A stretch of 46,355 nucleotides of DNA from a bacterium (GTDB lineage: Bacteria; Desulfobacterota; Binatia; HRBIN30; CADEER01), in contig JBDTMT010000001.1 in the NCBI GenBank assembly GCA_039934135.1, positions 1 through 46,355 on the forward strand, written 5' to 3'. Below, piece after piece: positions 9,389-28,871 of the stretch. Both the position numbers and the translations under genes were made by a program. Below the pieces are notes generated by a model. It made no database searches. It was not told the origin of the DNA and saw only the letters and a list, made by a program, of their open reading frames with translations. How positions within the stretch are numbered: position 1 is the first letter of the stretch; the number at the start of each line of letters is the position of its first letter.

Positions 9389-9464
9389 TCTTCAATGCGC
9401 CGCCGGTACGGTGCTGCAGGCGTCTGGGTGCACGATGTTGGGCGAGCGGCACGATGCGCGCGGG

Positions 9465-12410: not shown

Positions 12411-12848
12411 TCATCTCGGCGGTAGTACCATCTGTGTGCAGCGACACAGCGCCATGGTTCGACCGCTGGTCTCGTTGGTGACCGTCGCATCCCATACGTG
12501 GGTCTGACGACCGAGATGAAGCGGCGTACAGCGACAGGTCACGCGCTCGCCGACGCGCGCCGACGCCAAGAAGTTGGTCTTCAGCTCGATCGTCGTGAAC
12601 GAGCTGCCGGCGGGAATATTGTTGCCGCAGCCGATTGCGGCGCAGATGTCCGCCAGCGCGATCACCGCGGGTGCGAACAGGAAGCCCGTCCCGGCGATGA
12701 GGTTGGCGGTCACGTCGATGTGTCCGACGACCAGATCCGTGGCCGAATGGTCGAACACGCACCCCAGCTGACCCGGCACGAGTGCCGCGAAGAACTCAGT
12801 CGCGCTGCGCGCCCGCATCGCGGCGTCCGTGTCGTCAGGTTGAGTCAT
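12411..12848 (-). CDS. PaaI-family (hotdog-fold) thioesterase
   Basis: Start MTQPDD (12848). Blocks GHIDVTANLIAGTGFLFAPAVIALADI, FTTIELKTNFLASARVGERV, GRQTHVWDATV resemble the PaaI/4HBT hotdog signature. Confidence 0.75.
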   Translation of the reverse strand: MTQPDDTDAAMRARSATEFFAALVPGQLGCVFDHSATDLVVGHIDVTANLIAGTGFLFAPAVIALADICAAIGCGNNIPAGSSFTTIELKTNFLASARVGERVTCRCTPLHLGRQTHVWDATVTNETSGRTMALCRCTQMVLPPR

Positions 12849-13037
12849 GATGGGTTCCTTCCCTGTCGCGCTGCGGCGGCGACGCCACCCGAGCGTTGCC
12901 TGCCGTTCGCATGGCAGCGCCGTGATTGTGCGGCGAGACCCGCTCCCGAGCACAGACCTGTTCTGTGCAGTTCAACCGCCGTTGCTCCTGATGGCGGCAG
13001 CGTATCAAGAAGTGTCCCGTGGCGGCTCCTCCCGCCA

Positions 13038-14628
13038 TCAGCCGCGCGTGTGGACGCTGACGTGGTACGGCTCGAGCGTGTCGATCGAGTCGGGGCGCTA
13101 TCGACGCCGCGGTGCCAGCGGAAATGCGAGATGGTGATTTGATCGGGCTCGACGTCGAGTAGGTGGAAGCCGTTCAGCTCCTGGATCGGCGTGATGGGCT
13201 CGAGCGCCAGGTGTTGGGCGGGTGTGGCGACCGTGCCGCGCGCAGCGGACGGCCAGCCGACGCCGGTGCCGGGGGTGCCGCTGATGATGCTGACGATGGG
13301 GTTGGCGCGGAAGTCGTTGGCGCCGCTGGCGAGAATATGACCGGAGCCTTGGCCGTGGATGTCGCCGCTGACGAACAGCGGCAGACGCGGCATCGCCGAG
13401 GCGGCGGCAAGCAGGCGGTCGTGCTGCGCCAGAAAGCCGCTCGCCCAGCCTGGCTTCGGCACCTCGGTGGTCAGCGCGCCATCGACCAGCACGTCGGGAT
13501 ACCACTCGGCGTATTTGCCGGCGGTCCAGCCGGGTGGGTTCGACGGCATGTGGATGATCTGCTGTGCGTCGCTCTCGGCCATGCGTGCATGTAACCAGGC
13601 TTCGACGTCATCCGGCACCAGTCCGGCGTCGGCACCGTCGGCCGGGTGCATGAAGCCTTTGCAGTCGTAGAGCAGCGCTTCGAGCAGGTGGCCCCAGCGT
13701 ACGGTGCCGAACGATTCGCTCACGCCTTTCGGGCGGTCGCCGGCGCCAGCGCCCGGCAGCGTCACCGGTCCATACGGATCGGGCAGGAACTCCGGGTAGT
13801 AAAGCCACTGCGTGGCGCGCGCCAGCGCGCGACTGAAGACGTCGGGCGGGAACGTCGTCAGCTCCGGCGTCACCTGGTCGTCTTCAAAGTAGTCGTGATC
13901 GTCGCGCAGGAAGAAGACCGGCGTCGCGCGCAGCATGGTGCCGTAGAGCTCGGCGATCTGACCATCGACGGCACCCGTCAGCACGCCCTCGTTCGCCGTG
14001 CCGAGCACCGGTTGGTTGCGGTCGAAGGTCCCGGCGATGCGCTTGGTGGTCGGCGATTGGCCGAGCAGCACGGCCGAGATGCTGGCGCGCAGATCCCAGT
14101 AGACATGGTCGCCGTTGGCCACCACCACATCCGGCGCGAAGCTGAGGCCGCGCTGCAGCAAGCGCCGCCGTATGGCCAGCGGGACATAGAGGCCAAAGGC
14201 GTCATGGCCGCCGGCGCAGGTGTAGGCCAGGATGGCGCACGTGCTGTGGCCGCGCGTTCGGCGCCGGCAGCGTCGTCAGCAACCACGGCGCGGTGATGGC
14301 GCGGCGGCCGATGCGCAGCACCAGTGTATGGGCGCGTTGCGAGACCAGGTCGCGCGCATCGAAGGCCCAGAAGCGACCGCTGCTATCGGTTGGGATGCCT
14401 CGCAGCGCATGCCCGTCGACGCGCAACTCCGGCGTCGCGTCGGGCGGCGCCTGCAGTGACACCTTGAGGTAGATGCGATCGCTGCTCGCGGTCGCGAGGA
14501 TGTGCGCAACCTCGCCGTCATCGGTCGGCTGCACGACCGTGCCGTCGTCGCCGCAGCCCGACAGGGCCAAAGCCGCGCCGGCGGCGCCGGTGAGACGGAG
14601 AAAGTCGCGCCGCCTCATGCGGCTGGTT
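13038..14628 (-). pseudogene. Tat-exported metallophosphoesterase-like protein, disrupted by two frameshifts
   Basis: N-terminus MRRRDFLRLTGAAGAALALSGC (14628). Frame switches near 14231-14240: ...APNARPQHVR in one frame, then ILAYTCAGGHDAFG...ANGDHVYWD...LRDDHDYFEDD...SGDIHGQG in another. A second shift occurs near the GGGG run at 13092-13095, after which a GC3-rich frame reads SIDTLEPYHVSVHTRG-stop (13038). Confidence 0.6.
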
Positions 14629-14966
14629 GGTACGCTGCTGCGCGGCTTGTCGGGATGGAGAACCGGCACTTGCCTAACAGAGTTACGGCAACAGCCAAGC
14701 GCCGGTCGGCGTTCTGCGCCAGGCTGATCTCGGATCAGCACGAGGAATGCAGGGCCGTTGAAACGGAACGGACGGCGAGTACCGTACTGGCGCGCTGGCC
14801 GCGGGCCGAACGCTTCGGCGGCCGGTCGGGGGAATGCCCCGGACCGGCCGCCGCGCGCGCTGCGACTGGGTCGCCTATACCGCGGGAGCAGTCCGTGCCG
14901 CCCGCAGCGCTTCCACACCCCGGCCGCCGCCCGACGGCAGCGTGATGCCGGCGTGATCCGCGACTG

Positions 14967-15797
14967 GAAGTCGGGGTAGGCCGGGGCACCGTGTTCGCCG
15001 ATGTCGAGGCCTTCCTCTTCCTCCTCTGCCGTGACGCGGATACCGATCGTGGCCTTGAGCGCCAGGAACAAGGCGAAGCCCGTCACCATGCACCAGGCGA
15101 ACACCGCGAACACCCCCACGGCCTGGTGGACGAGGAGCGAGGCGCCGCCGCCGAAGAGCAGGCCGTCGCCAGTCGTGCCAGGGGAGAAGACGTCCTCCGC
15201 GAAGAGGCCGAGCGCCAGCGTGCCGAAGGAACCGCAGACTGCGTGCACCGATACCGTGCCCACCGGATCGTCGACCTTCAGCGTCCGCTCGACGAAGACC
15301 ACCGATAGCACGACGAGGACGCCGGCGCCGATGCCGATGATGATCGAGCTGCCCGCCGACACGAAGGCGCAGGGGGCCGTGATGGCCACCAGTCCGCCGA
15401 GTGCACCGTTCAGCGTCATGCTGGTGTCGGGCTTGCCGAACATGATCCACACGGTGAACATCGCCGCCAAGGCGCCTGCGGCCGCGGCCAGGTTGGTGGT
15501 GACGGCGATGTGCGCGATGGAGATGTTTGCGGCCATCGTGCTGCCCGGGTTGAACCCGAACCATCCGAACCAGAGGATGAACACCCCGAGCGTCGTCAGC
15601 GGGATGTTGTGGCCGAGGATCGGGTTGGGCTTGCCGTCCGCCCGATACTTCCCGAGCCGGGGACCGAGCACCGCGGCGCCGGCGAAGGCCAGCCACCCGC
15701 CCGTGGAGTGGACCACGGTCGAGCCCGCAAAGTCCCACATGCCGAGGCTCGCGAGCCAGCCGCCGCCCCAGATCCAGTGACCGACGACCGGGTAGAT
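14967..15797 (-). pseudogene. amt: Ammonium transporter (Amt/MEP family), 5'-truncated remnant
   Basis: Amt similarity runs from IYPVVGHWIWGGGWLASLGMWDFAGSTVVH through FGWFGFNPGS, VDDPVGTVSVHAVCGSFGTLALG to EGLDIGEHGAPAYPDF. The N-terminal ~130 aa of a normal Amt are absent in all frames. The listed 584-aa ORF is a stop-free chimera running into the next gene. Confidence 0.6.
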
Positions 15798-16160
15798 GAG
15801 GGGAACCCTAGCAAGTCGCTCGCCGGCCAAATCACGCGTGTTTGCGAAGCTCAGGGACCGTTTTGCCGCAGAATTGGGCAATCTGCTGCCCACATACCAG
15901 GCTGCTGCTGGACCGTCCGGCAGTCTCCACGGCACCTCGGAGGACCACCGGGACACCCCGGCGACGCCTGCCGATTCCGATCGTGCCGATCCCTCCTCGC
16001 GCTCAGCGCATAGGCCGCATGAGCCGGCGAATTCACAGATCCGGGGGGTATCGGACGTGCCGTTGCGCGGGCACCCAAATTGCCGGCGACCGTCCTCGTG
16101 CGGGTGCGTGGCGCTGGCAAGGGTTGAAATTAGGCCCTGGCGAGCGGTGCGGACGGGGGT

Positions 16161-16556: not shown

Positions 16557-17666
16557 TCAGCCGCCGCGGATCGCGTTGACGACCTGCGCCGCGTTGATGG
16601 TCTGACCGCCCCACTTCAATGAGCCAAGGATGAAAACCCGATCGTCGCTGCCGAGACCGACGGTGCCGCCCAGGCCGACGTTCACCCACAGTTGGTAGGC
16701 GCCGGGTATGCGGAAGTTGCTCGTCAGTGCACCGCGGAAGCCGTTGCGCGCGCCGCGATCCTCCGGATCCTCGTAGAGGTAGGCGCCGTCGAGCGACACC
16801 GACAGTGTCGGCCGCCCGACCCGCATCCGCACGCCGGCCAGCAGGGTGTCCTGGCGGAAGAAGGTGTCGTCCTTGTCGGGGTCGGGCGTCTCCTCATCGA
16901 GGCGGTAACGTAACCCGAACATCAGTTGGGAGGTCTCCTCCAGCAGTCCCGGCGGCTTCTTCAGTATTTCATTGGCTTCGTCATCGGTCTTCGCATCGCG
17001 CGCTCGGCGCAGCCTGTCGTCGAATCCGTAGGCGAACGTGGACCAGAAGGTCGCGCCGTTCCACTGCGTCGAGCCGTTGGTGCCGTCCTCCTGGATCCAG
17101 GTCGGCGCGGCGCCGATGTCCCAGGCGGTTCGGTTCCAGTTCCGTTGCTTCGCCTCCTTGTGGCAGACCTCAACGTCCGCTTCAGCAGCAACTGCGGCAC
17201 GGCTGACAGCGTCCTGGAACTCTTTGAGGGTGGCGAAGTCGGTGGGGCGTGGAATGACCGACCGCCTCAGGCATCTGCGCAGCAGGATGTCGAGCCGCGG
17301 ATCGCCATAGTCGATCGGCGTCAACTTGAAGCCGAGGGCGAGCTTGAGCGAGGTGTCGTCGCTGTCGGTACCCTTCGTGGTGGCCGCCGACACCTCAAAG
17401 TTCGACGCCAGCTGCTGTGCCAGCGAATCCTCATAGTCCTTGATCGTCAGTTGCTTGCCGCGCAGCAACAGCCACGGAACGGTGTCGAGCGCCAGGCCGG
17501 CCTGGAAGTTGCCGTTCGGATCGAGCCCACTGAGGACGTCGACCGCAACCTGCCGCGGGCTGGCGGGTCGGGTGATCGTCTCCGGCGTGAGGTCGAGGGC
17601 GGTGAAGGCGGGCGATTCCGGCACCGCGAGGTCGAGCTCGGTGAGATCGGCCGGCAACTTATCCAC
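16557..17666 (-). CDS. Hypothetical protein (369 aa), beta-rich, no signal peptide recognised
   Basis: GC3-consistent ORF starting with GTG (17666), overlapping the upstream gene's 3' end by 8 nt (17659-17666). No recognisable family. Alternating strand-like C-terminal half (GAYLYEDPEDRGARNGFRGALTSNFRIPGAYQLWVNVGLGG). Confidence 0.55.
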   Translation of the reverse strand: MDKLPADLTELDLAVPESPAFTALDLTPETITRPASPRQVAVDVLSGLDPNGNFQAGLALDTVPWLLLRGKQLTIKDYEDSLAQQLASNFEVSAATTKGTDSDDTSLKLALGFKLTPIDYGDPRLDILLRRCLRRSVIPRPTDFATLKEFQDAVSRAAVAAEADVEVCHKEAKQRNWNRTAWDIGAAPTWIQEDGTNGSTQWNGATFWSTFAYGFDDRLRRARDAKTDDEANEILKKPPGLLEETSQLMFGLRYRLDEETPDPDKDDTFFRQDTLLAGVRMRVGRPTLSVSLDGAYLYEDPEDRGARNGFRGALTSNFRIPGAYQLWVNVGLGGTVGLGSDDRVFILGSLKWGGQTINAAQVVNAIRGG

Positions 17667-18192
17667 GACCTCGACTGTCCGCTTCGACTGCGCCGCGACG
17701 ACCGCGCTCGAAGCGGACGATCTCCGTGTCGCCCTGGGTCAGCGTCACGCTGAGGAAGAACCGGGCGCCGGGACCGAATTTCAGGGCTTTGATCCACACC
17801 ACCCAGAAGAGCGTGAAACGGTCGATGTCACCGAGGTCGGCGAGCGTCGGGACGAGATTGAACTCGTCTTCGATGTCATCGTCGTTGGTGCTGTGCGCCA
17901 CCTCGCTCGGATTCATGCCGTTCTGATCCCAGAGCGACACGCTGTACTCGCCAAGCTGCAACTGCGTGACTTCGATGCGCATGCGGGGAATCGGCCCCGC
18001 CGCTGACAGGGCGACCTTCCGCTTGTCCTCGCTGCTGTCCGCCGCTGCGGCGCCGGCTTCCAGGTCGCGCGTCCGCGATGCGGCTGGAGCTCCGCTGGAC
18101 CTGCTCTTCTTCGGCCGCGTCTTCTTCGTTGGAGCGGCCGGTTTGCCGGAGGCCGCCTTGCCGCGGCTACTACGCTTCGCCTTACGCGCCAT
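17659..18192 (-). CDS. Hypothetical protein with Lys/Arg/Pro/Ala-rich (histone-H1-like) N-terminal tail
   Basis: Start MARKAKRSSRGKAASGKPAAPTKKTRPKKSR (18192), preceded by GAAGGAGGGG. A C-terminal ~110-aa globular part follows. Translationally coupled to 16557..17666. Confidence 0.55.
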   Translation of the reverse strand: MARKAKRSSRGKAASGKPAAPTKKTRPKKSRSSGAPAASRTRDLEAGAAAADSSEDKRKVALSAAGPIPRMRIEVTQLQLGEYSVSLWDQNGMNPSEVAHSTNDDDIEDEFNLVPTLADLGDIDRFTLFWVVWIKALKFGPGARFFLSVTLTQGDTEIVRFERGRRGAVEADSRGRG

Positions 18193-18294
18193 CTCCCCTC
18201 CTTCGTGGGCGGCGAAGGTTGGGGGTGGCCACGCGACGTTCCCGCTGCTCACCGGCAAGTGGCAGTGGCGCTATCAGTCGAGGAGACGGTGCGG

Positions 18295-18315: not shown

Positions 18316-18525
18316 GCGGAGCGCGGGCGCGACACCGGCGCGCCATGACCCGATCGCGGACTGGGGTGATCTCGATCGCCACCACGCAGCTCGGCCGGCA
18401 TGTCGATGGACTCGGACGTCGGCGGGCGCCGAGCTCGCACCGCGCCGCGCCAAGTGACGGTGCTGTCTCGGCGCCCGCTCGCCGAAGTTCGGGGTCGTGT
18501 CGCGCCTGGCGGCCGGCGGCGCCAC

Positions 18526-18545
18526 ATTAGGGAAAGTCCGTATTG
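18526..18545 (+). promoter_or_regulatory. Island motif copy (ATTAGGGAAAGTCCGTATTG)
   Basis: 109 nt upstream of the 18655 start, oriented toward it. Followed by TTGTTC, 18 nt, then TAAGAA, which could be -35/-10 elements. Confidence 0.45.
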
Positions 18546-18654
18546 TTCCTTGCGGTATCCGCATCCTAAGAACGCGCCCCATGCCGCCCCATCGATACGC
18601 TGCCGAGGGCCGATCACTGCGTGCGCCGTCCCGTCGCGCGGTGAATGCGTGCGC

Positions 18655-19446
18655 ATGATGGGCGCGCTCCTACTCGGCCTCGCCGCGCTGTTCGTCGTCG
18701 TCTGCGGCTGGAAGCTGGCGCTGCTCGGCGCCGCCATCGGCCGCCTGCGCAGGGTATCCCCGCGCCGGCGCCCGCTGCTGAGTCAGGCGATTCGCGCCCA
18801 CACGCTGCATCTGCTCCTCGCCGGCGTCGGCATCGCATTGCTGCTGATGGCCGAACGGCTACCCGGCGACGTCTATCTGTATGTCGCACCTCCGCCGCAC
18901 CCGATCGCGACAGCCACCGTGGCGACACCCGGCACGCCGCCGCCCACGCCGCCGCCGACCACTCCGCAAGAAGTGCACGCGATGCGGCTGGCGCGCGAGG
19001 AATTTGTCGACTTCCCGCCCTTCGCCCCAGGGTGCGCCTGCGATGACGAGAAAGCTCGGGACGACGAGGAGACGCAGAAGGTAAAGGACCAGCGCGCGCG
19101 CTCGGTCGAGGAAATGGGCCGACGACTGGCGGCCCAGTACAACAGCAACCAGCTGCGCTTCGTGCTTGTCGTCGGCACATTCGACCACACGTCGCTGAGC
19201 CCTGAGACGAACCGCCGCTATGACAGCAACACCGCGCTGGCGCAGGAGCGAGCCGAATGCGTCGCGCAGATGCTCAGGCCACTCCTCGAGCAGAGCGCCG
19301 CGGGCGCGGACTGGGACGAGATCCTGCACACCATGGTTGCCGGACCGCAGCATGCGCGCGGCCGACATCCCACGGAGCTCTTGCGCGCCCGAGATCGCGG
19401 CGTCCGCATTCTGGTCGGCGGCGACACGGTGGAAAGCAGAGGCTGA
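18655..19446 (+). CDS. Two-TM membrane protein with Pro-rich linker and OmpA/MotB-like C-terminal domain (tentative)
   Basis: Start MMGALLLGLAALFVVVCGW (18655). Second helix LHLLLAGVGIALLLMA. PPPTPPPTTP linker. C-terminal VVGTFDHTS...YDSNTALAQERAECVAQML...RDRGVRILV resembles the OmpA-like peptidoglycan-binding pattern. The stop overlaps the next start (TGATG). Confidence 0.5.
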   Translation: MMGALLLGLAALFVVVCGWKLALLGAAIGRLRRVSPRRRPLLSQAIRAHTLHLLLAGVGIALLLMAERLPGDVYLYVAPPPHPIATATVATPGTPPPTPPPTTPQEVHAMRLAREEFVDFPPFAPGCACDDEKARDDEETQKVKDQRARSVEEMGRRLAAQYNSNQLRFVLVVGTFDHTSLSPETNRRYDSNTALAQERAECVAQMLRPLLEQSAAGADWDEILHTMVAGPQHARGRHPTELLRARDRGVRILVGGDTVESRG

Positions 19447-22208
19447 TGACCAATCCAGCACCCCGTGCGCAGGCGCATTCGTCGCGCAGCTACCTGACCG
19501 ACACGTCGACTGAACACGACCGGCTCAATTTCTACGACACCGCGGTACGGGTCGCCGCGCGTCTGTCGCACCCGTCACAGCAGACGCCGCTCAGCGTCGC
19601 CGTCCAGGGCGCGGACGGCAGCGGCAAGACGACGTTCATGCGCTTGATGCGCGCCGCGCTAAAGGAGCAAAACAGCGCCTGCTGGAGCGTGTGGTACGAG
19701 CCCTGGCGTTTCGATACGGCGCGCGATGCCTGGCGCGGGCTGGTCTACGAATTCACCGACACTGTCGGCACCCCTCAGCGTCGCGGCCGGACATGGTTCG
19801 CCTCCGCCAAGGGATTGATGGAGCGGCGCTGGTCGTACGATCTGCTGCAAGCGGTCGAGGACGATCCGGGTGGTCCGGAGGTCACGCGGCAGTTCAGACG
19901 CTATCTCGAGCGCGTCGCCCAGCGCCTGAACGGTGCGCATGGACCGGCATCGCCGCTGGTGGTGGTCTTCATCGATGACCTCGACCGCTGCACGCCGGAG
20001 AGCGCTGCGGCCGTCCTGCAGGCGTCGACGCTCTTGCTGAACAGCCGCGGATTCGTGACGGTCTTCGGCCTCACGCCGGGCGCGTTCAACTCGATCGGCC
20101 GATCGGCCGCCGCCGGTTCCGGCACCAAGACCCGGATCGCCTCGCCCGAGCGCTTCTTCCAGATCGCGTTGCAAGTGCCGACGGTCAGTCGGGCCCAGTT
20201 CCGCGCCTACGTGGACGCGTGCGTCGATCAGAGCGCCTGCCCGTTCGATCGACGCTGGACGGATGTGCTGTCCTGGGTGCTGTTCCCCAGCCCGCGTGAC
20301 GTCAAGCGGTTCCTCAACTACCTGATCTCCGAGTGGGACAAGGCGGACAGTGCCCGGTTGCTGCCGAGCGAGGCATCGATCACCGCGGGCCACTCGACGC
20401 GCCCTGGTACGAACGACCCGAGCGTCGACGATGCGACGACGGCGGCGAGTGGTACGACGCTCGGCACGACGCCGCCAACGCCGAGCCCTCGTGCCGAGGC
20501 GGCCGGCGTGCTGCGCTCGTCCGCCGACGCGGCGCACTCCCAGTTCGTCCTGCTGGCTCTGCTCACGTGGCGCTTCCCCGAGGTCGCCGACTACCTGCGT
20601 GGCGCTCAGGCCGATCCGGACGCCTTCGACCGCCTGGTCCGCGCCGCGCTGCGCGCGGATGCCGAAGATACCGGAATCGAGGTCGCTGCCCCCGGCGATG
20701 CCAAGGAGGGAAGGGAGCACGGATTCCTGGCCGATCCGGCGCTGCGTGGCCTGATGATCGATTCCTTCGGCACGGCCGAAAGGGGGGCGCATCGTCCGAC
20801 CCTTGTTCCGCCGTTCCGGTCCCCGGCCGAGCTCGGTGGCTTGTTGTTCCACTTCGGCGGTGCGCCGTCGGCGGCCGATCCGCTCAGCGGGTCGCTCGGG
20901 CCGGTCAATCCGGAATGGTCGGCCACCACGAGCCTGCAGGAGGCGCGCGACCGCAGCGCGACGCGCGGCGACATGGCGGCGGCGAAGTGGAGCGCCGAGC
21001 TGCTGCAGCGCCGCCAGTCGACCGATGCGATCGTTAGCATCCGTGCCTATCGCGAGCAGGCGCGCAACAACCAGCAGATGGGTCTGCAGGCGGAGTCGCA
21101 CAATCTGGCGAACGAGGCGCTCGCCATCGCCGCGGGCAACAAGGTCTCGGCCGGGCAACGACCGCTTGCGTATGCCGAGGCACACCTCGCCCTCGCGGAA
21201 CACTTCGCCGCCTTCTCGCCGCTCAGCTCGGCGATCGACCAGGCGCAGGAGGCATGGACCTTCGCCCTCGAGGCCAAAGAATCCAACACCCAACTGCAGG
21301 CGCTGATCGCGTTAACGTATGCGCGCAAGCTCGACTGGCAGAATACCCAGGCGATCGCGGACTGCCGGCAGGCCCTCGAGCTGGACGGCAAGACGGGTGG
21401 CCTGCGCGACGTCACGTTGCGGCTTCTGCTGGCCGAGCTGCATCACCGTCAGGCGCGCCAACACCAGCGCGAATGCAAACAGGCCGCATGGCGCGCCGAG
21501 ATCGACGCGGCACTGGCGCAGAGTGCGCTCATCGATGCTGCGATTGCCGCCGCCCCGCGCGACGAGCGCCAGCGGTACGAACGCCTACGCAGGCGGCTGC
21601 TCGACGCGCAGCGCGACGGTCTCACGGCGGATCCCAACACGCCGAGCCAGCCGGTCGCCTTCATCAGCTACGCGCACAAGAATCCGGAGCCCTTCGGCCG
21701 CGTTCGGACGATCCTCGACGCCTGGAGGGTCAGCGGAAAGTTGCACGTGTGGGAGGACACGCAGATCCAGGTCGGCGCGCTCTGGCAACTTGAGATCGAG
21801 AGCGCCCTCGAAGAAGCCACGCATGCGATCATGCTCTCGTCGCCCGAGTACGAGGCATCGGAATTCATCCGTTGGGTCGAGCGCCCGCGCATCAACTCGA
21901 TGTTCAACCGGGGCGACATCACCCTCCTCATCATTCCGCTCGGCGGGGCGGTCACCAAGTCGACGCTGAGCGGCATCCAGTTCCTGTGGCCCCAGCCGCT
22001 CGATTCGTTGGACGAGGCGCATCGCGACGAAGCGTGGAAGGGCATCACGGCGAAGCTCGAGGCCATCTTCAACCCCCCGCCTCCGGCCGGCGGAGGAGTC
22101 ACGGCCACGGCGGCGGCGGGTAGCGAGGTAGGCAACGCCGCGCCCGTCGGGTCAACCGCGTCATCGGCGCCCCCGCCGTCGTCAGACAGGCCGTCCGCCG
22201 GTGGGTGA
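19446..22208 (+). CDS. KAP-family P-loop NTPase with helical-repeat (TPR-like) middle and C-terminal TIR domain
   Basis: Start MTNPAPR (19446). Walker A GADGSGKTT. KAP signature VVVFIDDLDRC and PRDVKRFLNYL. No TM insertion. Repeat-like alpha region. C-terminal TIR: VAFISYAHK...VWEDTQIQVGALWQLEIESALEEATHAIMLSSPEYEASEFIRWVE. Confidence 0.8.
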   Translation: MTNPAPRAQAHSSRSYLTDTSTEHDRLNFYDTAVRVAARLSHPSQQTPLSVAVQGADGSGKTTFMRLMRAALKEQNSACWSVWYEPWRFDTARDAWRGLVYEFTDTVGTPQRRGRTWFASAKGLMERRWSYDLLQAVEDDPGGPEVTRQFRRYLERVAQRLNGAHGPASPLVVVFIDDLDRCTPESAAAVLQASTLLLNSRGFVTVFGLTPGAFNSIGRSAAAGSGTKTRIASPERFFQIALQVPTVSRAQFRAYVDACVDQSACPFDRRWTDVLSWVLFPSPRDVKRFLNYLISEWDKADSARLLPSEASITAGHSTRPGTNDPSVDDATTAASGTTLGTTPPTPSPRAEAAGVLRSSADAAHSQFVLLALLTWRFPEVADYLRGAQADPDAFDRLVRAALRADAEDTGIEVAAPGDAKEGREHGFLADPALRGLMIDSFGTAERGAHRPTLVPPFRSPAELGGLLFHFGGAPSAADPLSGSLGPVNPEWSATTSLQEARDRSATRGDMAAAKWSAELLQRRQSTDAIVSIRAYREQARNNQQMGLQAESHNLANEALAIAAGNKVSAGQRPLAYAEAHLALAEHFAAFSPLSSAIDQAQEAWTFALEAKESNTQLQALIALTYARKLDWQNTQAIADCRQALELDGKTGGLRDVTLRLLLAELHHRQARQHQRECKQAAWRAEIDAALAQSALIDAAIAAAPRDERQRYERLRRRLLDAQRDGLTADPNTPSQPVAFISYAHKNPEPFGRVRTILDAWRVSGKLHVWEDTQIQVGALWQLEIESALEEATHAIMLSSPEYEASEFIRWVERPRINSMFNRGDITLLIIPLGGAVTKSTLSGIQFLWPQPLDSLDEAHRDEAWKGITAKLEAIFNPPPPAGGGVTATAAAGSEVGNAAPVGSTASSAPPPSSDRPSAGG

Positions 22209-22347: not shown

Positions 22348-23526
22348 ATGAAACTATGCTTCATTTCATACGCGAGGAACAGCAATCTCGACGGCCGGTT
22401 GACGAAGTTCGTCGAGAAGCTGCAGCAGCAACTCCCGGGGCACCTGCCTCACGGTACTAAGCCCGCCGATGTCGTGTTCTTCGATGTGATGGGCATCGAG
22501 AACGGCGACGAGTGGATGCTGCGTCTAGCGGAAGCCACGCGTCGTTGTCGGGTGTGCGTCTGCTTCTACAGTCCACCGTACTTCACGAGTGAATATAGCG
22601 GGCGAGAGGTGCAGGTGTTCCTGCAACGCGTCCATGATTGGAAGACCACGAATCCCGGGCGGGATGTGCAGGCGATCATCCCGGTCATTTGGAGACCCCA
22701 CCATCCGATCCCTGCCGTCTTGCAGGTATTCCAATACGCTCACCAGGGTCTGCCTCCCGCATACGTCGAAGACGGGTTGCACTCGCTCGCTATGCGAAAA
22801 GGCCAGCGAGACGCGTACAATAGAGTTCTCGAAATCCTTTCTGCACGGATCGCAGCTGCATTGCAGGGCGCGCCCCTACCCGATGGACCGCCGATTGCCT
22901 CGTTCGGACAGGTGGCGAGTGCATTCCACGTTGCGCCGAGCCCAACACGGTACGGTGCGTCTGTGATTCTACTCGCCACCCCGGAACGCCGGATGCAGCC
23001 ATTCGCCGCCGCGGCCGTGTCGCTCGATGTCCTGGTGGAGCGAGTTGCCAACAGAAGTGCGGTGCCGTTTCGCGAGATCAATCTCGGCGCACAGACCGCC
23101 GCCGACGTGGCTGCGTCGCAAGCCGCACGGGAGATGCCGGTGTTGGTCGCGGATCGTGCGTCGCTCAGCTCGCCACTCAACCAGCCGCTCGTTCGGGCTC
23201 TGGCGGCGACCTTTGACGCGTCTGCCACTGTGGTCGTCTTTGGCGATCCATCGCCAAATGCGTCCGATGCGGCCGCGGATCTCCGCGGTCTCATCAGCAC
23301 CGCATTCGTGCCGTGGGGCAGCGGTCTGGGATCGACGTCCTGCCTCGTGGCAACCGATCCGGCGATTTTCGAGTCGGAGCTGGAACGTCGATTGACGAAG
23401 GCTCGCCACGAGCTGATCTCGGCTGACCCGGCTGGGCGCGCTCAGCACTCCGGCTTGGAAGCGGAGGCCGCGGCTCGCGGCATCTCGGTCGGCAGTCAGC
23501 CCGTTCTGGCGAGTCCTGGTGCCTGA
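22348..23526 (+). CDS. TIR-like domain protein (FxsC-like architecture: N-terminal TIR-like domain plus uncharacterised C-domain)
   Basis: MKLCFISYARNSN...VVFFDVMGIENGDEWMLRLAEATRRCRVCVCFYSPPYFTSEYSGREV. Visibly lower GC and GC3 than flanking backbone genes. Confidence 0.7.
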   Translation: MKLCFISYARNSNLDGRLTKFVEKLQQQLPGHLPHGTKPADVVFFDVMGIENGDEWMLRLAEATRRCRVCVCFYSPPYFTSEYSGREVQVFLQRVHDWKTTNPGRDVQAIIPVIWRPHHPIPAVLQVFQYAHQGLPPAYVEDGLHSLAMRKGQRDAYNRVLEILSARIAAALQGAPLPDGPPIASFGQVASAFHVAPSPTRYGASVILLATPERRMQPFAAAAVSLDVLVERVANRSAVPFREINLGAQTAADVAASQAAREMPVLVADRASLSSPLNQPLVRALAATFDASATVVVFGDPSPNASDAAADLRGLISTAFVPWGSGLGSTSCLVATDPAIFESELERRLTKARHELISADPAGRAQHSGLEAEAAARGISVGSQPVLASPGA

Positions 23527-23527
23527 T

Positions 23528-25417
23528 ATGCCGCCACGACGAATTGTAGAGTCGGCGAAGAAAAAGCCGCGCGCGGCCGCCTCGTCCAAGAAATCGGCGC
23601 GCGCGCCCGTCGGGAGAGTCATCACTTTCTATTCCTACAAGGGGGGCACGGGGCGCACGATGGCGCTGGCCAACGTCGCTTGGATTCTGGCCAGCAGCGG
23701 CCGCCGTGTGCTGGTGATCGATTGGGACCTCGAGGCACCCGGTCTGCACCGCTACCTGCATCAATTCCTCGACGACAGCGAAGGTACCAACCGGCCCGGG
23801 CTCATCAACTTCCTGTGGGAGTTTGTCGAGGGGGCTCGCGCGCACGTCGATTCCCCGAAGACCGAGTGGTTCGCATCCTATGCGAACCTCGGGCGCTATG
23901 CCTGTTCGCTGGAGTGGGAGTTCCCGGGAGACGGGACGATCGACTTCATCACCGCTGGCCGTCAGGGTTCGTCGTATGCGTCCAGCGTCACGTCATTCGA
24001 CTGGAACGAATTCTATGAGCGGCTCGGTGGGGGAACCTTCCTGGAGGCGGTCAAGAAGAACCTACGTAGCGAGTATGACTACGTCCTGATCGACAGCCGC
24101 ACCGGCATCTCCGACAGCTCGGGGATTTGTACCATCCAGATGCCCGATGATCTGGTCGTCTGCTTCACGCTCAACACGCAGAGCATCCGCGGCGCGGCGG
24201 CGACTGCGGAATCGGCATTCCAGCAGCGCATTACCCCCAGTCGCGCACCCGGGCTGCGGGTATGGCCCGTGCCCACTCGAGTTGAGCTGGCCGAGCGCGA
24301 TCGACTGGAGCGAGCCCGCGACGAAGTGCGGGCTCGATTTCAGAGATTTCTGCATCATCTGCCAGCGAAGAATCGGGTCGCGTATTGGGGGCGGGTGGAG
24401 GTGCTGTACCAACCCTACTACGCCTACGAGGAGGCACTGGCGGTGCTCACCGACCGCCCACAGCAAGTGGGGTCGCTCTTGCAGTCGTTCGAGCATCTCA
24501 CAAGCTACCTGACCGATGGGTCCGTTGAGTCGCTCGCCAGAGGCGTCGGTCAGACGGGACGGTCGGCTCCGCTTCCACCTGTCGGAGAGGATGTGGGTCC
24601 GTTCTTCGTCAGCTACAGTCGAGCCGATGAGGAATTCGCATCACGCCTGGTTCACGCACTTCGTGACCGGCTGGGATCCGCTTCGGTACTCTGGGATCAG
24701 AATCTCCTCGCCGCGGGCGATCCCTTCGGCGAGAAGCTCGCGGTCGCCATGAACGACGCTCAGGCGGTTCTGCCACTCGTCGGTCCGTCGTACGTCGAGA
24801 GCCCGACGACCGAGAGGGAGATTGCGTACGCGCTCGCCCGCGGCTTGCGAGTCATTCCCTTGCTGCTGCCCGGCGTGACCTGGTCTGACCTCTCCGTGCA
24901 GCGCGAGCCGTTCGAGTCGCTCAGGCGATTCTACGGGTTTGAGTTTGGCAAGGGCCTGCCGTCGACGAAGAAATCCTCCGATCCGCTCCGAGTCGGGAGC
25001 GAGGGCGACGTCGACCAACTGATTGAGTTTCTCCGAACCGCGAGTAGCCGGGGACGAGGCGTGGCGGTGGCGGATCCCGACGATCCGCATCGCGGGCAGT
25101 TCGGTGGCCGCAGCGAGCGGAACGGCTTCACCCTGAGCGCCAGGGTTGCGTCGCTCAGCCGCAGCTGGTTCGAGCTCGAGCTTCGGGTGACACGGTATGG
25201 CGCGCCGACAAGCGATACAGGCGAAGTGGAATTTCATATCCATCCGACGTTCGACCCGCCGGTGCGCCGTGTGCGTGGCGGGAAAGACGGCGCAACACTG
25301 ACGCTCGAGACGTACGGAGCCTTCACGGTTGGTGCGATCGTTCTCGACTCACTCTCGATGTTGGAGCTCGACCTCTCGACGCTCAAGCAGGCGCCTAAGG
25401 TCTTTCGAGAGGGGTGA
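23528..25417 (+). CDS. ParA/MinD-like ATPase with variant Walker A (KGGTGR), fused to a TIR domain and a C-terminal pYEATS-like domain
   Basis: ATG 23528 (alternative GTG at 23519). ITFYSYKGGTGRTMALANVAWILASSGRRVLVIDWDLEAPGL. TIR: FFVSYSRADEEFASRLVHAL...VLWDQNLLAAGDPFGEKL...GPSYVESPTTEREI. C-terminus: DPHRGQFGGRSERNGFTLSARV...VEFHIHPTFDPP...LETYGAFTVGA...LELDL. Confidence 0.75.
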   Translation: MPPRRIVESAKKKPRAAASSKKSARAPVGRVITFYSYKGGTGRTMALANVAWILASSGRRVLVIDWDLEAPGLHRYLHQFLDDSEGTNRPGLINFLWEFVEGARAHVDSPKTEWFASYANLGRYACSLEWEFPGDGTIDFITAGRQGSSYASSVTSFDWNEFYERLGGGTFLEAVKKNLRSEYDYVLIDSRTGISDSSGICTIQMPDDLVVCFTLNTQSIRGAAATAESAFQQRITPSRAPGLRVWPVPTRVELAERDRLERARDEVRARFQRFLHHLPAKNRVAYWGRVEVLYQPYYAYEEALAVLTDRPQQVGSLLQSFEHLTSYLTDGSVESLARGVGQTGRSAPLPPVGEDVGPFFVSYSRADEEFASRLVHALRDRLGSASVLWDQNLLAAGDPFGEKLAVAMNDAQAVLPLVGPSYVESPTTEREIAYALARGLRVIPLLLPGVTWSDLSVQREPFESLRRFYGFEFGKGLPSTKKSSDPLRVGSEGDVDQLIEFLRTASSRGRGVAVADPDDPHRGQFGGRSERNGFTLSARVASLSRSWFELELRVTRYGAPTSDTGEVEFHIHPTFDPPVRRVRGGKDGATLTLETYGAFTVGAIVLDSLSMLELDLSTLKQAPKVFREG

Positions 25418-25423
25418 ACGAGC

Positions 25424-26599
25424 TCACGTCCTTGCGAACGGGCCGAAGTGCGTGGCGACCTCTACCTCGCGTTGGCCGACGGCGCGGCCGATGCGGCGGA
25501 GGCTGTCGATCTGATCGACCGCATCCATCTGTTGCACCGCTTCGGAACGCAGGTCGCCGCAGCCGAGCGCTTCGAGGCCGCCGGGGCTGAGGTCGGCGTT
25601 GTAGCGCACGTAGCGGAAAAGACGTTTGTGGTCGCGCGCTCCGTCCCGCTCATCCTCCGCCGGCAAGACCAGATCGCCCATCTCGCGGTCAATCTCGGCG
25701 CCGTGCACGCAGCGGCCGAAGGTGCGGCAATTCACATCCTGATCGACCTGGATGGCGTACATCAACTCGCTGGGCAGGTTCTGGAGATTGCCGAACAGGT
25801 TGCGTTGCGTGGCGTCGGTCACCCCCGCCGCCGCCCCGGTGCCGACCGAGACGAGCAGCAGGTCCGACTCGCCGGTCTTCCAGTTCAGTCGATAGGCCGG
25901 TTGCGTCGCCATGCGGAACAGCAGGAAGGCGGGGTTGTTGTACGGCGTGACGCCACCGTCGACGAAGACGCGCACGTCGTCCGGCCGCTTGGGATTGAGG
26001 CTAATGATCTCGGGTGGGAAGAAGACGGGTGCCGCCGTGCTGGCACGGACCAGCTGCCAGAGCGGGATGCGCAGATTGCAGTCGTCGCGCTCGCAGTCGT
26101 TGTACTTGGCAAAGGGGTTGCTCGAGATCGGCCACGGGGAGTCTGTGGTGATGTTGCGCGTGACGACCAGCAGCAGGCAGCGCAGTCGATCGCTGGTCAG
26201 GTCGGCGGTGCCGCCGCGTCCGTCGTGGAACACCTTGCGTAGCGTCTGTGCCAGCGGCTCGTCCTTGTAGAGGCTGCCGAGCAGCGAGGTGACGCGCTTT
26301 AGCACCGAGGTCTTGTCGAACATGTCCGCGCCCGAAGAGCGATAGAACGTGAGCAGCTCATCGGTCGACATGCCGATCGCCAGGCCGGCGGCGATGATCG
26401 AGCCGGTGCTGGTGCCGCCGATATAGTCGAAGTAATCGCCGAGCCGCTGGATACCGGTCTCGCGATCGATCTGTCGCTCCATTTCGGCGAGGATCTCCAG
26501 CGTCAGCGCGCCGCGGATGCCGCCGCCGTCGAGAGCCAGGAGCTTGCGCGTTCGCTCGGTGGCGAACCGCTCCCTCAGGTGCTGCGGCCAATCGGTCAT
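25424..26599 (-). CDS. Patatin-like phospholipase
   Basis: LALDGGGIRG oxyanion motif, GGTSTGS nucleophile elbow, FVDGGV Asp motif. Convergent with the previous gene, with a 6-nt gap. Confidence 0.85.
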   Translation of the reverse strand: MTDWPQHLRERFATERTRKLLALDGGGIRGALTLEILAEMERQIDRETGIQRLGDYFDYIGGTSTGSIIAAGLAIGMSTDELLTFYRSSGADMFDKTSVLKRVTSLLGSLYKDEPLAQTLRKVFHDGRGGTADLTSDRLRCLLLVVTRNITTDSPWPISSNPFAKYNDCERDDCNLRIPLWQLVRASTAAPVFFPPEIISLNPKRPDDVRVFVDGGVTPYNNPAFLLFRMATQPAYRLNWKTGESDLLLVSVGTGAAAGVTDATQRNLFGNLQNLPSELMYAIQVDQDVNCRTFGRCVHGAEIDREMGDLVLPAEDERDGARDHKRLFRYVRYNADLSPGGLEALGCGDLRSEAVQQMDAVDQIDSLRRIGRAVGQREVEVATHFGPFART

Positions 26600-26885: not shown

Positions 26886-28871
26886 ATGACTATCCGTCCT
26901 CATGCATTCGTCGCCATGCCGTTCGGCGCCAAGCCCACTGCCGATGGCACGCTGCTCGACTTCAATCGCGTCTATCTCGAGCTGATCCAGCCCGCGTTGG
27001 AGAGCGCGGGACTGTCGAGCTTCCGCGCCGACGAGGAGTTGCGCGGCGGCGACATCAAGACCGACATGTTTCAGGAGTTGCTGGTCGCTGACCTGGTGGT
27101 GGCGGATCTGACGATCGACAATCCCAACGTCTGGTACGAGCTCGGTGTTCGGCATGCACTGCGCGCGCGCGGTGTCGTTCTGCTCTGTGGTGGCCGGACG
27201 ACCACGGCCTTCGATCTCTATACCGATCGCAAGCTGCGCTACGGGATCGCCGACGGTGCGCCGGATGCGCGCACGCTGGAGACCGATCGCAGCCGGCTGG
27301 CGGCGATGGTCCAGGCGACGATGGAGTCGTGGCACGGTCGCAAGATCAGTCCCGTCTACCAGCTCCTGCCGAACCTACAGGAGCCGGACTGGAAGACGCT
27401 GCGCGTTGGCGACGTGCGTGAGTTCTGGGATCAGCACGAGGCGTGGGAGCGACGCGTCGACTTGGCGCGCCGGGACGAGCGCATCGGTGACCTGCTGGTG
27501 CTGGCCGACGAGGCGCCGGTCGCCGCCTTTCGCGCCGAGGCCTGGATCAAGGCGGGCCAGGCGCTGCGCAAAGCACACCTGTTTCTCTTCGCCCTCGAAC
27601 AGTTGGACCGTGGTCTGGCGATCGAACCGCTTCACATCACCGGGCTGCGGGAGCGCGGTATCTGCCTGCAACGCCTCGCGCTTATGGGACTCGCCGGCTA
27701 CTCGCTCGAGCGCGCGCGAGATCACTACCGCGACGTCCTCACGCACTATCCCAACGACCCTGAGACCTGGGCTCTCCTGGGCCGCGCCGACAAGGATGCC
27801 TGGACGGCCGCCTGGCGGCTCAAGGATCGAACACCTGTCCAACGCCGGGAGGATGCCGCCTACGAGGACGCGCTCCTGCGTGCTGCCATTGTCAGCTACG
27901 CGAAGGGCTACCGGGTCGACCAGAACCACTATTACTCGGGGATCAACGCGCTCACCCTCATGCATCTCCATGACGACCTCGTCGAAGGAGCGCGCTACCA
28001 GCGTGACTCGGAGATTATGCGCGGCGCCGTACGCTTCGCGGCGGAGGGCGAAGCGGATCGCGACCAGCTCTTCTGGGCGAAGGCCACGATCGGCGATCTC
28101 GAAGTGCTCGTTGGGACGCCCGACACCGTGCAGCAGGCATACAAGGACGCCATCGCCCTCAACGACAAGGATCCGTTCGCTCTCAACTCGGCGCGCGACC
28201 AACTGCTGATGCTGCAGGAGTTGAGCTTTCGGCCGGAGGCGGTCGCGGCGGGTATCGCCACCTTCGACCGCGCGCTCGCTCGCCTCAAGCTACCGGAGCA
28301 ACAATGGGAGCCGCGCCAGGTGTTTCTGTTCAGCGGCCACATCGTTGACGCGCCCGGGCGGCCCCAACCGCGCTTCCCAGCGAGCAAGGTCGACGCCGCG
28401 CGGCAACGGATCGCCGAGGTGTTGGATCGTCACGCCGCGGGACCGGACGACCTCGCCTACTGCCAAGCAGCCGCCGGCGGCGACCTCCTCTTTCTCGAAG
28501 CGTGTCAGCAGCGCCAGGTGCGTTACCGCATCCTGTTGCCGTTTCCCGAGGCAACGTTCCTCACTCGGTCCGTTCTGCCGTCGACCGACGGGGCGGCATG
28601 GCGCGACCGCTACTTTGCAGCGCTCGGCACCGCCGCCGCGCCGCGCATCATGCCCGACGAGCTCGGCCCGTTGCCTCAGCACGTCGACGCCTTCGAGCGC
28701 TGCAACCTCTGGCTGCTGTATAGCGCGCTCGCCTGTGGCCTCGCGCGGGTGCGTTTCGTCTGCTTGTGGGACGGCGGTGGCGGCGACGGCCCGGGCGGTA
28801 CCGCTCACATGTACAACGCGGTGTCGGCGCGCACCGGCCATGTCGATCGAATCGATGTCCACTCGCTCTGA
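26886..28871 (+). CDS. TIR-like/deoxyribohydrolase-like N-domain, TPR (DUF4071/TRAFs-binding-like) core and C-terminal SLOG-like domain
   Basis: N-terminus: AFVAMPFGAKP...VADLVVADLTIDNPNVWYELGVRHAL. Long helical-repeat middle. C-terminus: VFLFSGHIVD...AAGGDLLFLEA...LLPF...CLWDGGGGDGPGGTAHM (Gly-rich loop plus PGGxGT-like motif). Confidence 0.7.
   Translation: MTIRPHAFVAMPFGAKPTADGTLLDFNRVYLELIQPALESAGLSSFRADEELRGGDIKTDMFQELLVADLVVADLTIDNPNVWYELGVRHALRARGVVLLCGGRTTTAFDLYTDRKLRYGIADGAPDARTLETDRSRLAAMVQATMESWHGRKISPVYQLLPNLQEPDWKTLRVGDVREFWDQHEAWERRVDLARRDERIGDLLVLADEAPVAAFRAEAWIKAGQALRKAHLFLFALEQLDRGLAIEPLHITGLRERGICLQRLALMGLAGYSLERARDHYRDVLTHYPNDPETWALLGRADKDAWTAAWRLKDRTPVQRREDAAYEDALLRAAIVSYAKGYRVDQNHYYSGINALTLMHLHDDLVEGARYQRDSEIMRGAVRFAAEGEADRDQLFWAKATIGDLEVLVGTPDTVQQAYKDAIALNDKDPFALNSARDQLLMLQELSFRPEAVAAGIATFDRALARLKLPEQQWEPRQVFLFSGHIVDAPGRPQPRFPASKVDAARQRIAEVLDRHAAGPDDLAYCQAAAGGDLLFLEACQQRQVRYRILLPFPEATFLTRSVLPSTDGAAWRDRYFAALGTAAAPRIMPDELGPLPQHVDAFERCNLWLLYSALACGLARVRFVCLWDGGGGDGPGGTAHMYNAVSARTGHVDRIDVHSL

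Follow-up and report, generated by a model that had tools for sequence, protein, structure and literature searches.

A membrane protein with a divergent OmpA-like domain is encoded in overlap with a soluble KAP NTPase-TIR protein in a bacterial conflict island

RESULTS AND DISCUSSION

We analyzed a stretch of 46,355 nucleotides (nt) of DNA from a bacterium of the Desulfobacterota (Binatia), corresponding to positions 1 to 46,355 of contig JBDTMT010000001.1 (GenBank assembly GCA_039934135.1) and referred to below, at its full length, as the window. Between positions 18655 and 22208, on the forward strand, the window contains two overlapping open reading frames (ORFs), here called A and B. From the ORF list and the sequence, ORF A (18655–19446) encodes a 263-amino-acid (aa) inner-membrane protein in which a transmembrane (TM) hairpin is joined through a Pro/Thr linker to an OmpA-like domain, and ORF B (19446–22208) encodes a 920-aa soluble protein with a KAP-type nucleoside triphosphatase (NTPase) domain, a helical region, and a TIR domain. 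Each element has precedents, namely fusions of KAP with an effector, TIR effectors, and membrane components of defense systems that bind the wall; the coupled two-gene combination is new, and full-text literature searches linking KAP with TIR or OmpA found no description of this pairing. The reading that we favor, tentatively and with a probability of roughly 0.45, is that A and B form a rare two-gene conflict module of the anti-phage type in which A would tether an NTPase-gated TIR protein at the envelope.

Three diverged copies of the A-B pair retain the gene overlap

The junction of the two genes reads GCTGATGAC. The TGA stop codon of A (19444–19446) and the ATG start codon of B (19446–19448) share one base, giving a TGATG overlap at 19444–19448, with a Shine-Dalgarno-like AGAGG just 5' of the ATG of B. 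A preliminary description of this DNA, made from the sequence alone, had reported the same start/stop coupling, and its coordinates match the ORF list and the sequence exactly. Both ORFs show the codon-position GC content of coding DNA (0.74/0.50/0.83 for A and 0.67/0.54/0.85 for B, in a window of 68% GC). The start of A at 18655 holds because the in-frame stretch 5' of it (18400–18654) is flat by this measure (0.71/0.67/0.72), and a longer ORF A beginning at 18400 was rejected on the same ground. The only close homolog of A is also 263 aa long and begins at the equivalent residue. A scan for promoters and terminators returned no promoter-like sites, and terminator-like sites occurred at the background rate.

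Homologs were sought in an index of 5.8 billion proteins by word-indexed search and among 1.84 billion representative proteins by a full HMMER scan. The index yielded one homolog of A, a protein of 53% identity encoded on a Logan contig (P0002, locus L001). Whether the query was A or the family profile, word-indexed searches turned up next to nothing past the window protein and P0002, and it was the full HMMER scan that revealed the wider family described below. At L001, the gene following P0002 overlaps it by ATGA and matches KAP in Pfam (1.4e-7) and PifA in PADLOC (1.7e-11); judged by its sequence, it is clearly an orthologue of the N-terminus of B. The genes 5' of P0002 encode a GT4 glycosyltransferase and a methyltransferase, unlike the upstream genes of the window. 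The best distant relative of A (P0014, locus L005; HMMER E = 8e-22, ~36% domain identity), which has four TM helices, likewise has directly behind it a gene that overlaps by ATGA and encodes a KAP P-loop (Pfam 4.6e-4, 20.0 bits; PADLOC PDC-S20 1e-6), and nothing is called 5' of the P0014 gene. Between them, the KAP genes of L001 and L005 match PifA, QatA, and PDC-S20 in PADLOC. Scans of genome, metagenome, and viral contigs with A alignments for further copies of the pair recovered only a distant, unpartnered relative in a Reyranella metagenome-assembled genome; the 23-sequence A alignment was too diverse for deriving DNA patterns.

Stop/start overlaps are frequent in bacterial operons, and the overlap alone is commonplace. 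What goes beyond chance is that it has been kept in three diverged copies (TGATG in the window, ATGA at L001 and at L005), in the same gene order and with A proteins that are 36–53% identical. Because a KAP gene overlaps the A gene in all three cases, and because the genes preceding the pair at L001 are not those of the window, we regard the pair as a conserved unit.

A is a two-helix membrane protein with a divergent OmpA-like domain

Protein A begins with TM helix 1 (aa 3–29; 18661–18741), which has a Kyte-Doolittle 19-residue mean of 2.33 and is modeled by AlphaFold2 as a helix over residues 2–30. An Arg-rich loop follows (aa 30–49, RLRRVSPRRRPLLSQAIRAH; 18742–18801) and leads into TM helix 2 (aa 50–66; 18802–18852; Kyte-Doolittle mean 1.92; AlphaFold2 helix 39–67). 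Beyond the hairpin lies a Pro/Thr-rich linker, recognized from the sequence (aa 78–105; 18886–18969), which is probably disordered, its predicted local distance difference test (pLDDT) score being below 50 in the model. The architecture described earlier for the upstream protein, two TM segments and a Pro-rich linker, therefore stands. The loop contains the stretch RLRRVSPRRRP and seven Arg in all, for which reason we place it, by the positive-inside rule, in the cytoplasm and the remainder of the protein in the periplasm. It is predicted to be the only sizeable cytoplasmic part of A, and as such it is a candidate docking site for B. Within it, the pattern RRRPLL..AIR.H is unchanged in P0002, and TM helix 2 is almost invariant in P0002. 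Neither TM helix contains an Asp or a Glu, as read from the sequence. A lipoprotein was also considered and was rejected, as the conserved Cys17, which lies within TM helix 1, follows a V or an I and so is not part of a lipobox.

The C-terminal part of A (aa 117–256; 19003–19422) is a divergent OmpA-like domain of the peptidoglycan-binding type, marked by the motifs PPFAPGCACD, VVGTFD (with D177), SNTALAQERAECV (with R199), AGP, and DRGVRI. The Pfam OmpA model (PF00691) scores it below cut-off (13.1 bits against 27.2, E = 0.12), and the NCBIfam model of the TssL OmpA-type domain (TIGR03350) gives E = 3e-4 and 20.6 bits, against a family cut-off of 139.8. The OmpA-like similarity proposed in the preliminary description was nevertheless recovered by other means. 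In the AlphaFold2 model of A, computed from an alignment of two sequences only, the overall pLDDT is 60, with values mostly of 70–80 in this domain, and the modeled secondary structure is alpha-beta-alpha-beta-alpha-beta. A Foldseek search of the PDB with this model returned OmpA-like domains in all of the top 50 positions (TssL, PA0833, YfiB, MotB, OprF, Pal, and RmpM), the best being TssL 6aeo (E = 3e-6), and the target-normalized TM-scores for isolated OmpA-like domains ranged from 0.44 to 0.70. The 23-sequence family profile (alignment A3), searched against solved structures, matched TssL1 4b62 (E = 4.1e-7), 6aeo (6.3e-7), and PomB (1e-4), as well as structures of MotB, MotS, Pal, and YiaD. 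Nine of the 26 distant relatives scanned match Pfam OmpA themselves at E < 0.01, the best of them at 6e-6. It is on the Foldseek result, the profile matches, and these relatives together that we assign the domain to the OmpA-like fold, which is of the beta-alpha-beta-alpha-beta-beta type.

The family signature of this domain is PF..G ... LVGxxD...L.P..R.RY.SN.GLAQARA..V ... AGP ... DR.V, with invariant alignment columns for G, D, N, L, R, G, D, and R. The Asp (GxxD) and the Arg (LSxxRA) of OmpA-like domains contact the peptidoglycan stem peptide. D177 and R199 of A fall in invariant columns and align with the corresponding Asp and Arg of TssL1, and thus by alignment A keeps the peptidoglycan-binding pair; binding itself is a prediction. 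Two Cys positions, one after PF..G and one in RAxCV, covary in the family, with both present in six of 23 sequences, the second only in one, and neither in 16. This pattern fits a disulfide, and hence an extracytoplasmic (periplasmic) location of the domain, with the proviso that the sequences of the family are related to one another, which makes the count suggestive and not a probability.

B is a soluble KAP NTPase with a C-terminal TIR domain

The Walker motifs of KAP proteins are typically, though not universally, separated by an insert of two or four TM helices. The KAP-type P-loop NTPase domain of B (about aa 25–305; 19518–20360) was identified by Pfam (KAP_NTPase, PF07693; E = 2.3e-18, 66.9 bits against a cut-off of 20) and has no TM insert. 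Its Walker A motif, GADGSGKTT (aa 55–63; 19608–19634), and its KAP-type Walker B motif, VVVFIDDLDRC (aa 172–182; 19959–19991), are both intact in the sequence, and the FIDDLDRC columns are invariant in the KAP alignment (A5). The ~110 aa between the two motifs were modeled by AlphaFold2 as three soluble helices with pLDDT values of 60–85. No TM segment was predicted anywhere in B, the highest Kyte-Doolittle 19-residue mean being 1.28. TM prediction over both ORFs thus gives two segments in A and none in B, and the earlier observation that this KAP protein lacks TM helices is correct. In the AlphaFold2 model of B, confidence is good for the KAP domain alone, and the helical region and the TIR domain were left unresolved. 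A Foldseek search with this model returned only generic ATPase matches (AAA+, ORC/Cdc6, and RdrA), and the PADLOC and NCBIfam matches of B to QatA, PifA, and PDC-S20 are confined to the N-terminal P-loop part (about aa 16–160 for QatA and PifA).

Downstream of the NTPase domain, a low-complexity linker rich in Thr, Ala, Ser, and Pro (aa 306–359; 20361–20522; pLDDT ~30) is followed by an Ala/Leu/Arg/Gln-rich region that is predicted, at low confidence, to be alpha-helical (aa 360–734; 20523–21647). This region is a possible sensor or oligomerization region. No Pfam model, TPR included, matched aa 520–735, self-BLAST of B found no internal repeat, and the lone TPR-like local match of the region was a weak one to CHIP (E = 0.5). 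A TPR or other repeat nature of the middle region was rejected as unproven on these grounds. The TIR domain (aa 737–834; 21654–21947) carries the motifs VAFISYAH and SSPEYEASEFIRWVERP and matches Pfam TIR_2 (PF13676) over aa 739–832 (E = 5e-7, 30.6 bits against a cut-off of 28); its other matches are to ThsB in PADLOC (0.0027) and, by a weak alignment, to the TIR structure 7uxr. A low-complexity tail rich in Ala, Gly, Pro, and Ser (aa 866–920; 22041–22208; pLDDT ~30) closes the protein. The preliminary description had B end in a TIR domain after a long helical-repeat region. The TIR domain is indeed present, and the helices are predicted at low confidence; neither the repeats nor the terminal position holds, given the self-BLAST and Pfam results and the ~60 residues that follow the TIR domain.

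The A family and the soluble KAP proteins occur largely apart

The full HMMER scan with A returned 28 proteins, all of which match only its OmpA-like domain. Every full-length member has hydrophobic N-terminal segments, typically two to four. The members (P0014–P0040; loci L005–L014) share the motifs PF..G, LVGxxD, SN.GLAQARA, AGP, and DR.V and include a subclade with the covarying Cys pair. They constitute a separate membrane-protein family, for which Pfam, NCBIfam, and PADLOC have no dedicated model. One protein returned by the scan, P0015, was left out of the family. It is 3108 aa long, has C-type lectin, EGF, and Calx-beta matches, and was matched weakly by the A profile at 14 places (E = 2e-15 overall); these matches are probably compositional, and the protein looks eukaryote-like or chimeric.

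We examined 11 genomic contexts of the A family, the window included. An overlapping KAP gene lies downstream in three of them (the window, L001, and L005). At L008 (genes at 146–727 and 740–1705), the A-family gene (P0017) lies directly 3' of a gene encoding a Trypco2 domain (Pfam 1e-12), a domain from trypsin-associated conflict systems. At L010 (P0018; ORFs at 1–1119, 1280–2131, and 2118–2351), a weakly SIR2-like gene lies upstream (PADLOC SIR2 1e-4, no Pfam match) and an overlapping ORF downstream. The latter encodes 78 aa that align weakly with KAP N-termini, has ISSLETTS in the place of the P-loop, and has no Pfam or PADLOC match. Since this ORF lacks a P-loop, we left L010 ambiguous and did not count it as a fourth instance of the pair; it may be a degenerate version of the A-B module with the NADase in trans. 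The remaining six contexts (L006/L007, L011/L012, a JGI contig, L009 of Reyranella, L013, and L014) contain neither a KAP gene nor an obvious defense gene.

On the KAP side, none of the nearest relatives of B (P0004, P0006, and P0007) has a TM insert, although P0006 has one borderline hydrophobic segment, and at the two of their loci that we examined, those of P0004 and P0006, the KAP gene stands alone. Seven of 11 KAP relatives in viral contigs also lack a TM insert. The premise of the preliminary description that a soluble KAP protein is unusual was therefore not borne out. TM pairs between Walker A and Walker B do occur in more distant KAP proteins (P0008, P0010, P0011, and P0012); P0008 is itself a TIR-KAP fusion in one polypeptide, with the TIR domain N-terminal and the TM pair between the Walker motifs. 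We searched 14 other KAP loci with a hidden Markov model of the A domain, following the suggestion that KAP-TIR genes lacking TM inserts might be systematically preceded by a membrane partner of this kind, and found a partner at none of the 14; outside a narrow clade, the partner is not conserved next to KAP-TIR homologs. A soluble KAP protein is thus ordinary, and it is the OmpA-like partner that is specific to one small clade.

The locus had also been interpreted as a split version of the membrane-anchored KAP architecture. What stands of this is that a soluble KAP protein is coupled to a membrane protein; against it are the frequency of soluble KAP proteins and the independence of the A family. 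Because that family is mostly found without KAP and the nearest relatives of B are both TM-less and unpartnered, the sequence comparisons point to recruitment of A from an existing membrane module and not to its having split off from a TM-bearing KAP protein.

Three of the KAP relatives of B (P0005, P0009, and P0011) carry FGE-sulfatase domains of the C-type lectin fold. The FGE-sulfatase domain is a sensor-type domain that is diversified by retroelements in multicellular bacteria (PMC10907252), and its presence among these relatives indicates that the KAP clade of B swaps C-terminal modules.

A possible envelope-tethered module and alternatives to it

In the reading we favor, A and B would be produced together, and B would dock on the conserved Arg-rich cytoplasmic loop and the TM hairpin of A. 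Docked B would sit at the inner face of the envelope, in what would be an in trans equivalent of the TM insert present in many other KAP proteins. The trigger might be an invader protein bound by the helical region of B or a disturbance relayed by A. A nucleotide-dependent rearrangement or oligomerization of the KAP domain could then gather the TIR domains, whose output would be either NAD+ cleavage or the nucleation of neighboring TIR proteins, and the infected cell would be arrested. Besides the conserved overlap, this reading draws on the conflict island around the pair and on the A-family members that adjoin conflict-type genes (Trypco2 at L008 and SIR2-like at L010). KAP NTPases with variable C-terminal fusions protect against phage and require the Walker B motif to do so (PMC13552941), and TM-plus-OmpA components are present in other NTPase conflict systems (PMC7159879).

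Several points weigh against it. Contact between A and B is conjectural, and the part of A predicted to face the cytoplasm amounts to some 20 residues only. B may not require A at all, since it has an NTPase of its own, an effector domain, and a region that might serve as a sensor, and close soluble relatives of B have no such partner. Outside the KAP domain, B was modeled by AlphaFold2 only at low confidence. Neither A nor its homologs matched anything in PADLOC. Among billions of proteins, this very rare pair was found three times, and the contigs of L001 and L005 both end inside the KAP gene, which leaves the presence of a TIR domain and the downstream genes at those loci out of view. The nature of the TIR output is a further difficulty. 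We take the catalytic Glu of TIR NADases to lie four residues past the conserved Trp; the nearest Glu in SSPEYEASEFIRWVERP is E811, within RWVERP, two residues past the Trp, and in the weak alignment with 7uxr, the Glu four past the Trp of that structure pairs with an Arg of B. Because of this displaced Glu and of the Arg aligned in its place, NADase activity of the TIR domain is uncertain on the sequence.

The best placed of the alternatives, which we nonetheless consider unlikely, gives A a sensory role in place of plain anchoring, as the preliminary description had suggested. The wall-bound periplasmic domain of A would detect damage to the wall or envelope at phage entry and signal through the TM hairpin, upon which B would fire its TIR domain, much as in Zorya but with no motor. 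Such a relay would suit the retained peptidoglycan-binding Asp and Arg, the flexible Pro/Thr linker, the strong conservation of TM helix 2 and the loop, and the tight coupling to a gene for a cytoplasmic effector, and it has a precedent in ZorAB, a peptidoglycan-binding complex through which phage invasion is signaled to soluble effectors (PMC11946911). However, A has no MotA/ZorA-like partner, no acidic residue in its TM helices, and no cytoplasmic domain or tail through which a signal could be transferred. The long helical region of B could itself be the sensor, and nothing separates sensing from mere anchoring. A more specific form of the idea, which we rate as somewhat less probable again, is a motor-less envelope alarm in which wall-anchored, two-helix A would report peptidoglycan or inner-membrane disturbance at phage entry to a docked KAP protein and thereby switch on the TIR domain. 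The A family would then act as a swappable envelope input, to KAP-TIR here, to a SIR2-like protein at L010, and to Trypco2 at L008.

Three further explanations seem to us improbable, and about equally so. In the first, A would be a co-effector, which activated B would cause to disturb the membrane or the wall in the manner of the small TM effectors of abortive infection. Small proteins with two TM helices are frequent effectors in defense operons. According to a passage in PMC13552941, PifA, a relative among KAP proteins, makes membrane permeability lesions in T7 exclusion, and a 2020 eLife survey classes TM-plus-OmpA/PEGA/PASTA proteins of iSTAND systems as "peptidoglycan-associating effector domains" (PMC7159879). 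B already contains a TIR effector, though, and degradation of the wall is not a function of OmpA-like domains, which bind it; members of the A family, moreover, also stand alone beside ordinary metabolic genes.

In the second, the TIR domain of B would be an adaptor that nucleates hetero-oligomers with the TIR proteins encoded downstream (22348–23526, 23519–25417, and 26886–28871), making A-B the membrane-proximal entry of a multi-TIR system. The local gene arrangement lends itself to this, with three TIR_2 proteins and the weaker TIR-like protein of 26886–28871 encoded within ~10 kb on the same strand and a gap of 140 nt, free of terminator-like sites, between B and the next gene. So does the displaced Glu of B, as by eye two of the downstream TIR domains have a Glu in the place expected from S..Y..S.[WY]...E. 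Yet the FxsC-like TIR protein and the KGGVGR ATPase belong to separately modeled NCBIfam families, overlap each other, and may be a module of their own, and at both L001 and L005 the contig ends before the region 3' of the KAP gene.

In the third, the association would be incidental or would belong to housekeeping, with A an ordinary envelope protein that shares an operon with a KAP gene, or with the pair serving envelope maintenance. Six of the 11 A-family contexts have no KAP or recognizable defense gene, and stop/start overlaps are common. This explanation has to contend with the retention of the KAP overlap in three copies at 36–53% identity, with differing upstream genes where these are visible, with the demonstration that KAP-effector fusions are defense proteins (PMC13552941), and with the dense conflict island that makes up much of the window.

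Finally, gene fission, by which the TM hairpin of A would be the former TM insert of a classical KAP protein, would lead to a similar outcome, a KAP domain and two TM helices in one operon (compare the TM pair within P0008, P0010, P0011, and P0012), but we regard it as very improbable, as A lies upstream of a whole KAP gene, its hairpin is joined to the OmpA-like domain of an independent family with two to four TM helices that is found without KAP, and the TM-less, unpartnered state of the nearest relatives of B implies that loss of the insert was earlier than, or unrelated to, the gain of the partner.

Comparison with known systems

PifA of the F plasmid is a KAP protein with no known TM insert and acts at the membrane. 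Together with QatA of QatABCD and the KAP-effector fusions (EF_KAP and relatives, PLoS Biol 2026, PMC13552941), it shares with B the KAP NTPase, the DDLDR Walker B motif, and a variable C-terminal region in which the defense function resides. EF_KAP proteins differ in having TM helices in the same protein and an uncharacterized C-terminal region, whereas B is soluble, has a recognizable TIR domain, and is coupled to a separate OmpA-like partner. B scores 53 against a cut-off of 600 bits with the QatA model, and no QatB, QatC, or QatD was found among the neighbors scanned; nor was a ThsA, as would be needed for Thoeris. In membership tests, the locus qualified as none of Thoeris, PifA, QatABCD, and Zorya. 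The classical KAP NTPases, reported by Aravind et al. in 2004, are said to have TM inserts; they belong to the same NTPase family as B, which in the corresponding place has 110 soluble residues. In the TIR-KAP fusion P0008, the TIR domain is N-terminal, whereas in B it is C-terminal, and any contact of B with the membrane would be made in trans.

For A, parallels among known systems are ZorAB of Zorya (PMC11946911) and MotAB/PomAB, with which it shares an inner-membrane component bearing a periplasmic OmpA-like domain; ZorAB is also encoded together with soluble defense effectors. MotB, PomB, and ZorB have a single TM helix with a protonatable Asp and a neighboring MotA/ZorA protein with four TM helices, whereas A has two TM helices, no acidic residue within them, and no cytoplasmic tail. 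We accordingly rejected A as a stator subunit, on the grounds of its two TM helices, the lack of an acidic TM residue, and the lack of a MotA/ZorA-like neighbor. There was no PADLOC match to Zorya, and the genes upstream of A are divergent and matched neither Pfam nor PADLOC. In sequence and in structure, the best match of the C-terminal domain of A is to the long form of TssL/DotU of the type VI secretion system (T6SS), a protein of the membrane complex whose C-terminus is extended by an OmpA-like domain; the match covers this end only, and both proteins are anchored in the inner membrane. An identity as TssL was rejected, as A begins with TM helix 1 and has no cytoplasmic DotU domain, scores 20.6 bits against 139.8, and has no T6SS genes nearby.

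The iSTAND ternary systems (Kaur, Burroughs, Iyer, and Aravind 2020, PMC7159879) resemble the locus in their TM-plus-OmpA-type component, their NTPase center, and their TPR-S, pYEATS, nSTAND, CHAT, and TIR neighbors. They are built on vWA-MoxR and iSTAND NTPases; here the NTPase is of the KAP type, and no vWA or MoxR protein was seen among the ORFs scanned. The main text of PMC7159879 does not mention KAP.

If A and B act together, the locus would separate tethering, wall binding, ATP hydrolysis, and TIR output into functions that can each be removed by mutation alone, because the ATPase-TIR protein is soluble and its sole link to the envelope is a separately encoded protein of the wall-binding type. 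A defensive role of KAP NTPases at membranes is said to have been predicted two decades ago. Protection against phage by KAP NTPases that carry variable effector regions was shown only in 2025–26. The locus bears on how these NTPases are triggered and on why they are so often embedded in the membrane. The work also defines the divergent OmpA-like membrane family, of which 28 representatives were found among 1.84 billion, mostly missed by the Pfam OmpA model and some of them encoded beside conflict genes.

Genomic setting and other features of the window

From ~16.5 kb onward, the window is a conflict island of NTPase, TIR, CHAT, and patatin genes. The first gene after B, on the same strand, encodes an FxsC-like TIR protein (22348–23526; NCBIfam FxsC_Nterm 1e-32) and overlaps by 8 nt a gene for a ParA/MinD-like ATPase with a KGGVGR motif, a TIR domain, and a pYEATS domain (23519–25417, forward strand; PADLOC PDC-M28B 1e-24). 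The 140 nt between B and this pair contain no terminator-like site, and A-B may share a transcript with the genes of 22348–25417. On the reverse strand and convergent with the TIR-pYEATS gene, at a distance of 6 nt, is a gene for a patatin-like phospholipase similar to the cGAMP-activated lipases of CBASS (25424–26599; PADLOC effector 3.5e-45; NCBIfam 1.8e-36, which is below the cut-off), and no cyclase was found among the ORFs scanned. Farther downstream are genes for a TIR-like/TPR-S protein (26886–28871, forward strand; PADLOC TIR effector E = 1.2e-4), an nSTAND1-WD40 protein of 1394 aa (32634–36818, reverse strand), and a DUF7379-lipase-CHAT-TPR-S protein of 1870 aa (39063–44675, reverse strand). 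TIR, TPR-S, pYEATS, nSTAND, and CHAT all appear in a catalogue of domains from NTP-dependent conflict systems in multicellular bacteria (PMC7159879).

Upstream of A and divergent from it are two reverse-strand ORFs that overlap by 8 nt (16557–17666 and 17659–18258), with GC contents at third codon positions of 0.85 and 0.80, as in coding DNA. Pfam, NCBIfam, and PADLOC gave no match for either, and at 90% identity each is a singleton. One of the two proteins, of 199 aa, has an N-terminus rich in Lys, Arg, and Ser, and the pair is not conserved 5' of A-B at L001.

Two further features lie nearer the start of the window. A 584-aa ORF on the reverse strand (14202–15956) covers just the C-terminal two thirds of an ammonium-transporter model (model positions 125–399) and runs on into an apparent twin-arginine signal peptide (RRRDFLRLTGAAGAALALSGCG); the rest of the protein behind this signal peptide, with the metallophosphoesterase-like motifs GDHVYWD and DDHDYF, lies in another frame at 12845–14161. 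The state of this region as a whole (~12845–15956, reverse strand) suggests frameshifts, pseudogenes, or assembly errors. The long forward-strand ORF at 9307–10155 contains a Phd/YefM antitoxin domain at aa 172–212 (Pfam 1.8e-9), and the real gene there is probably much shorter.

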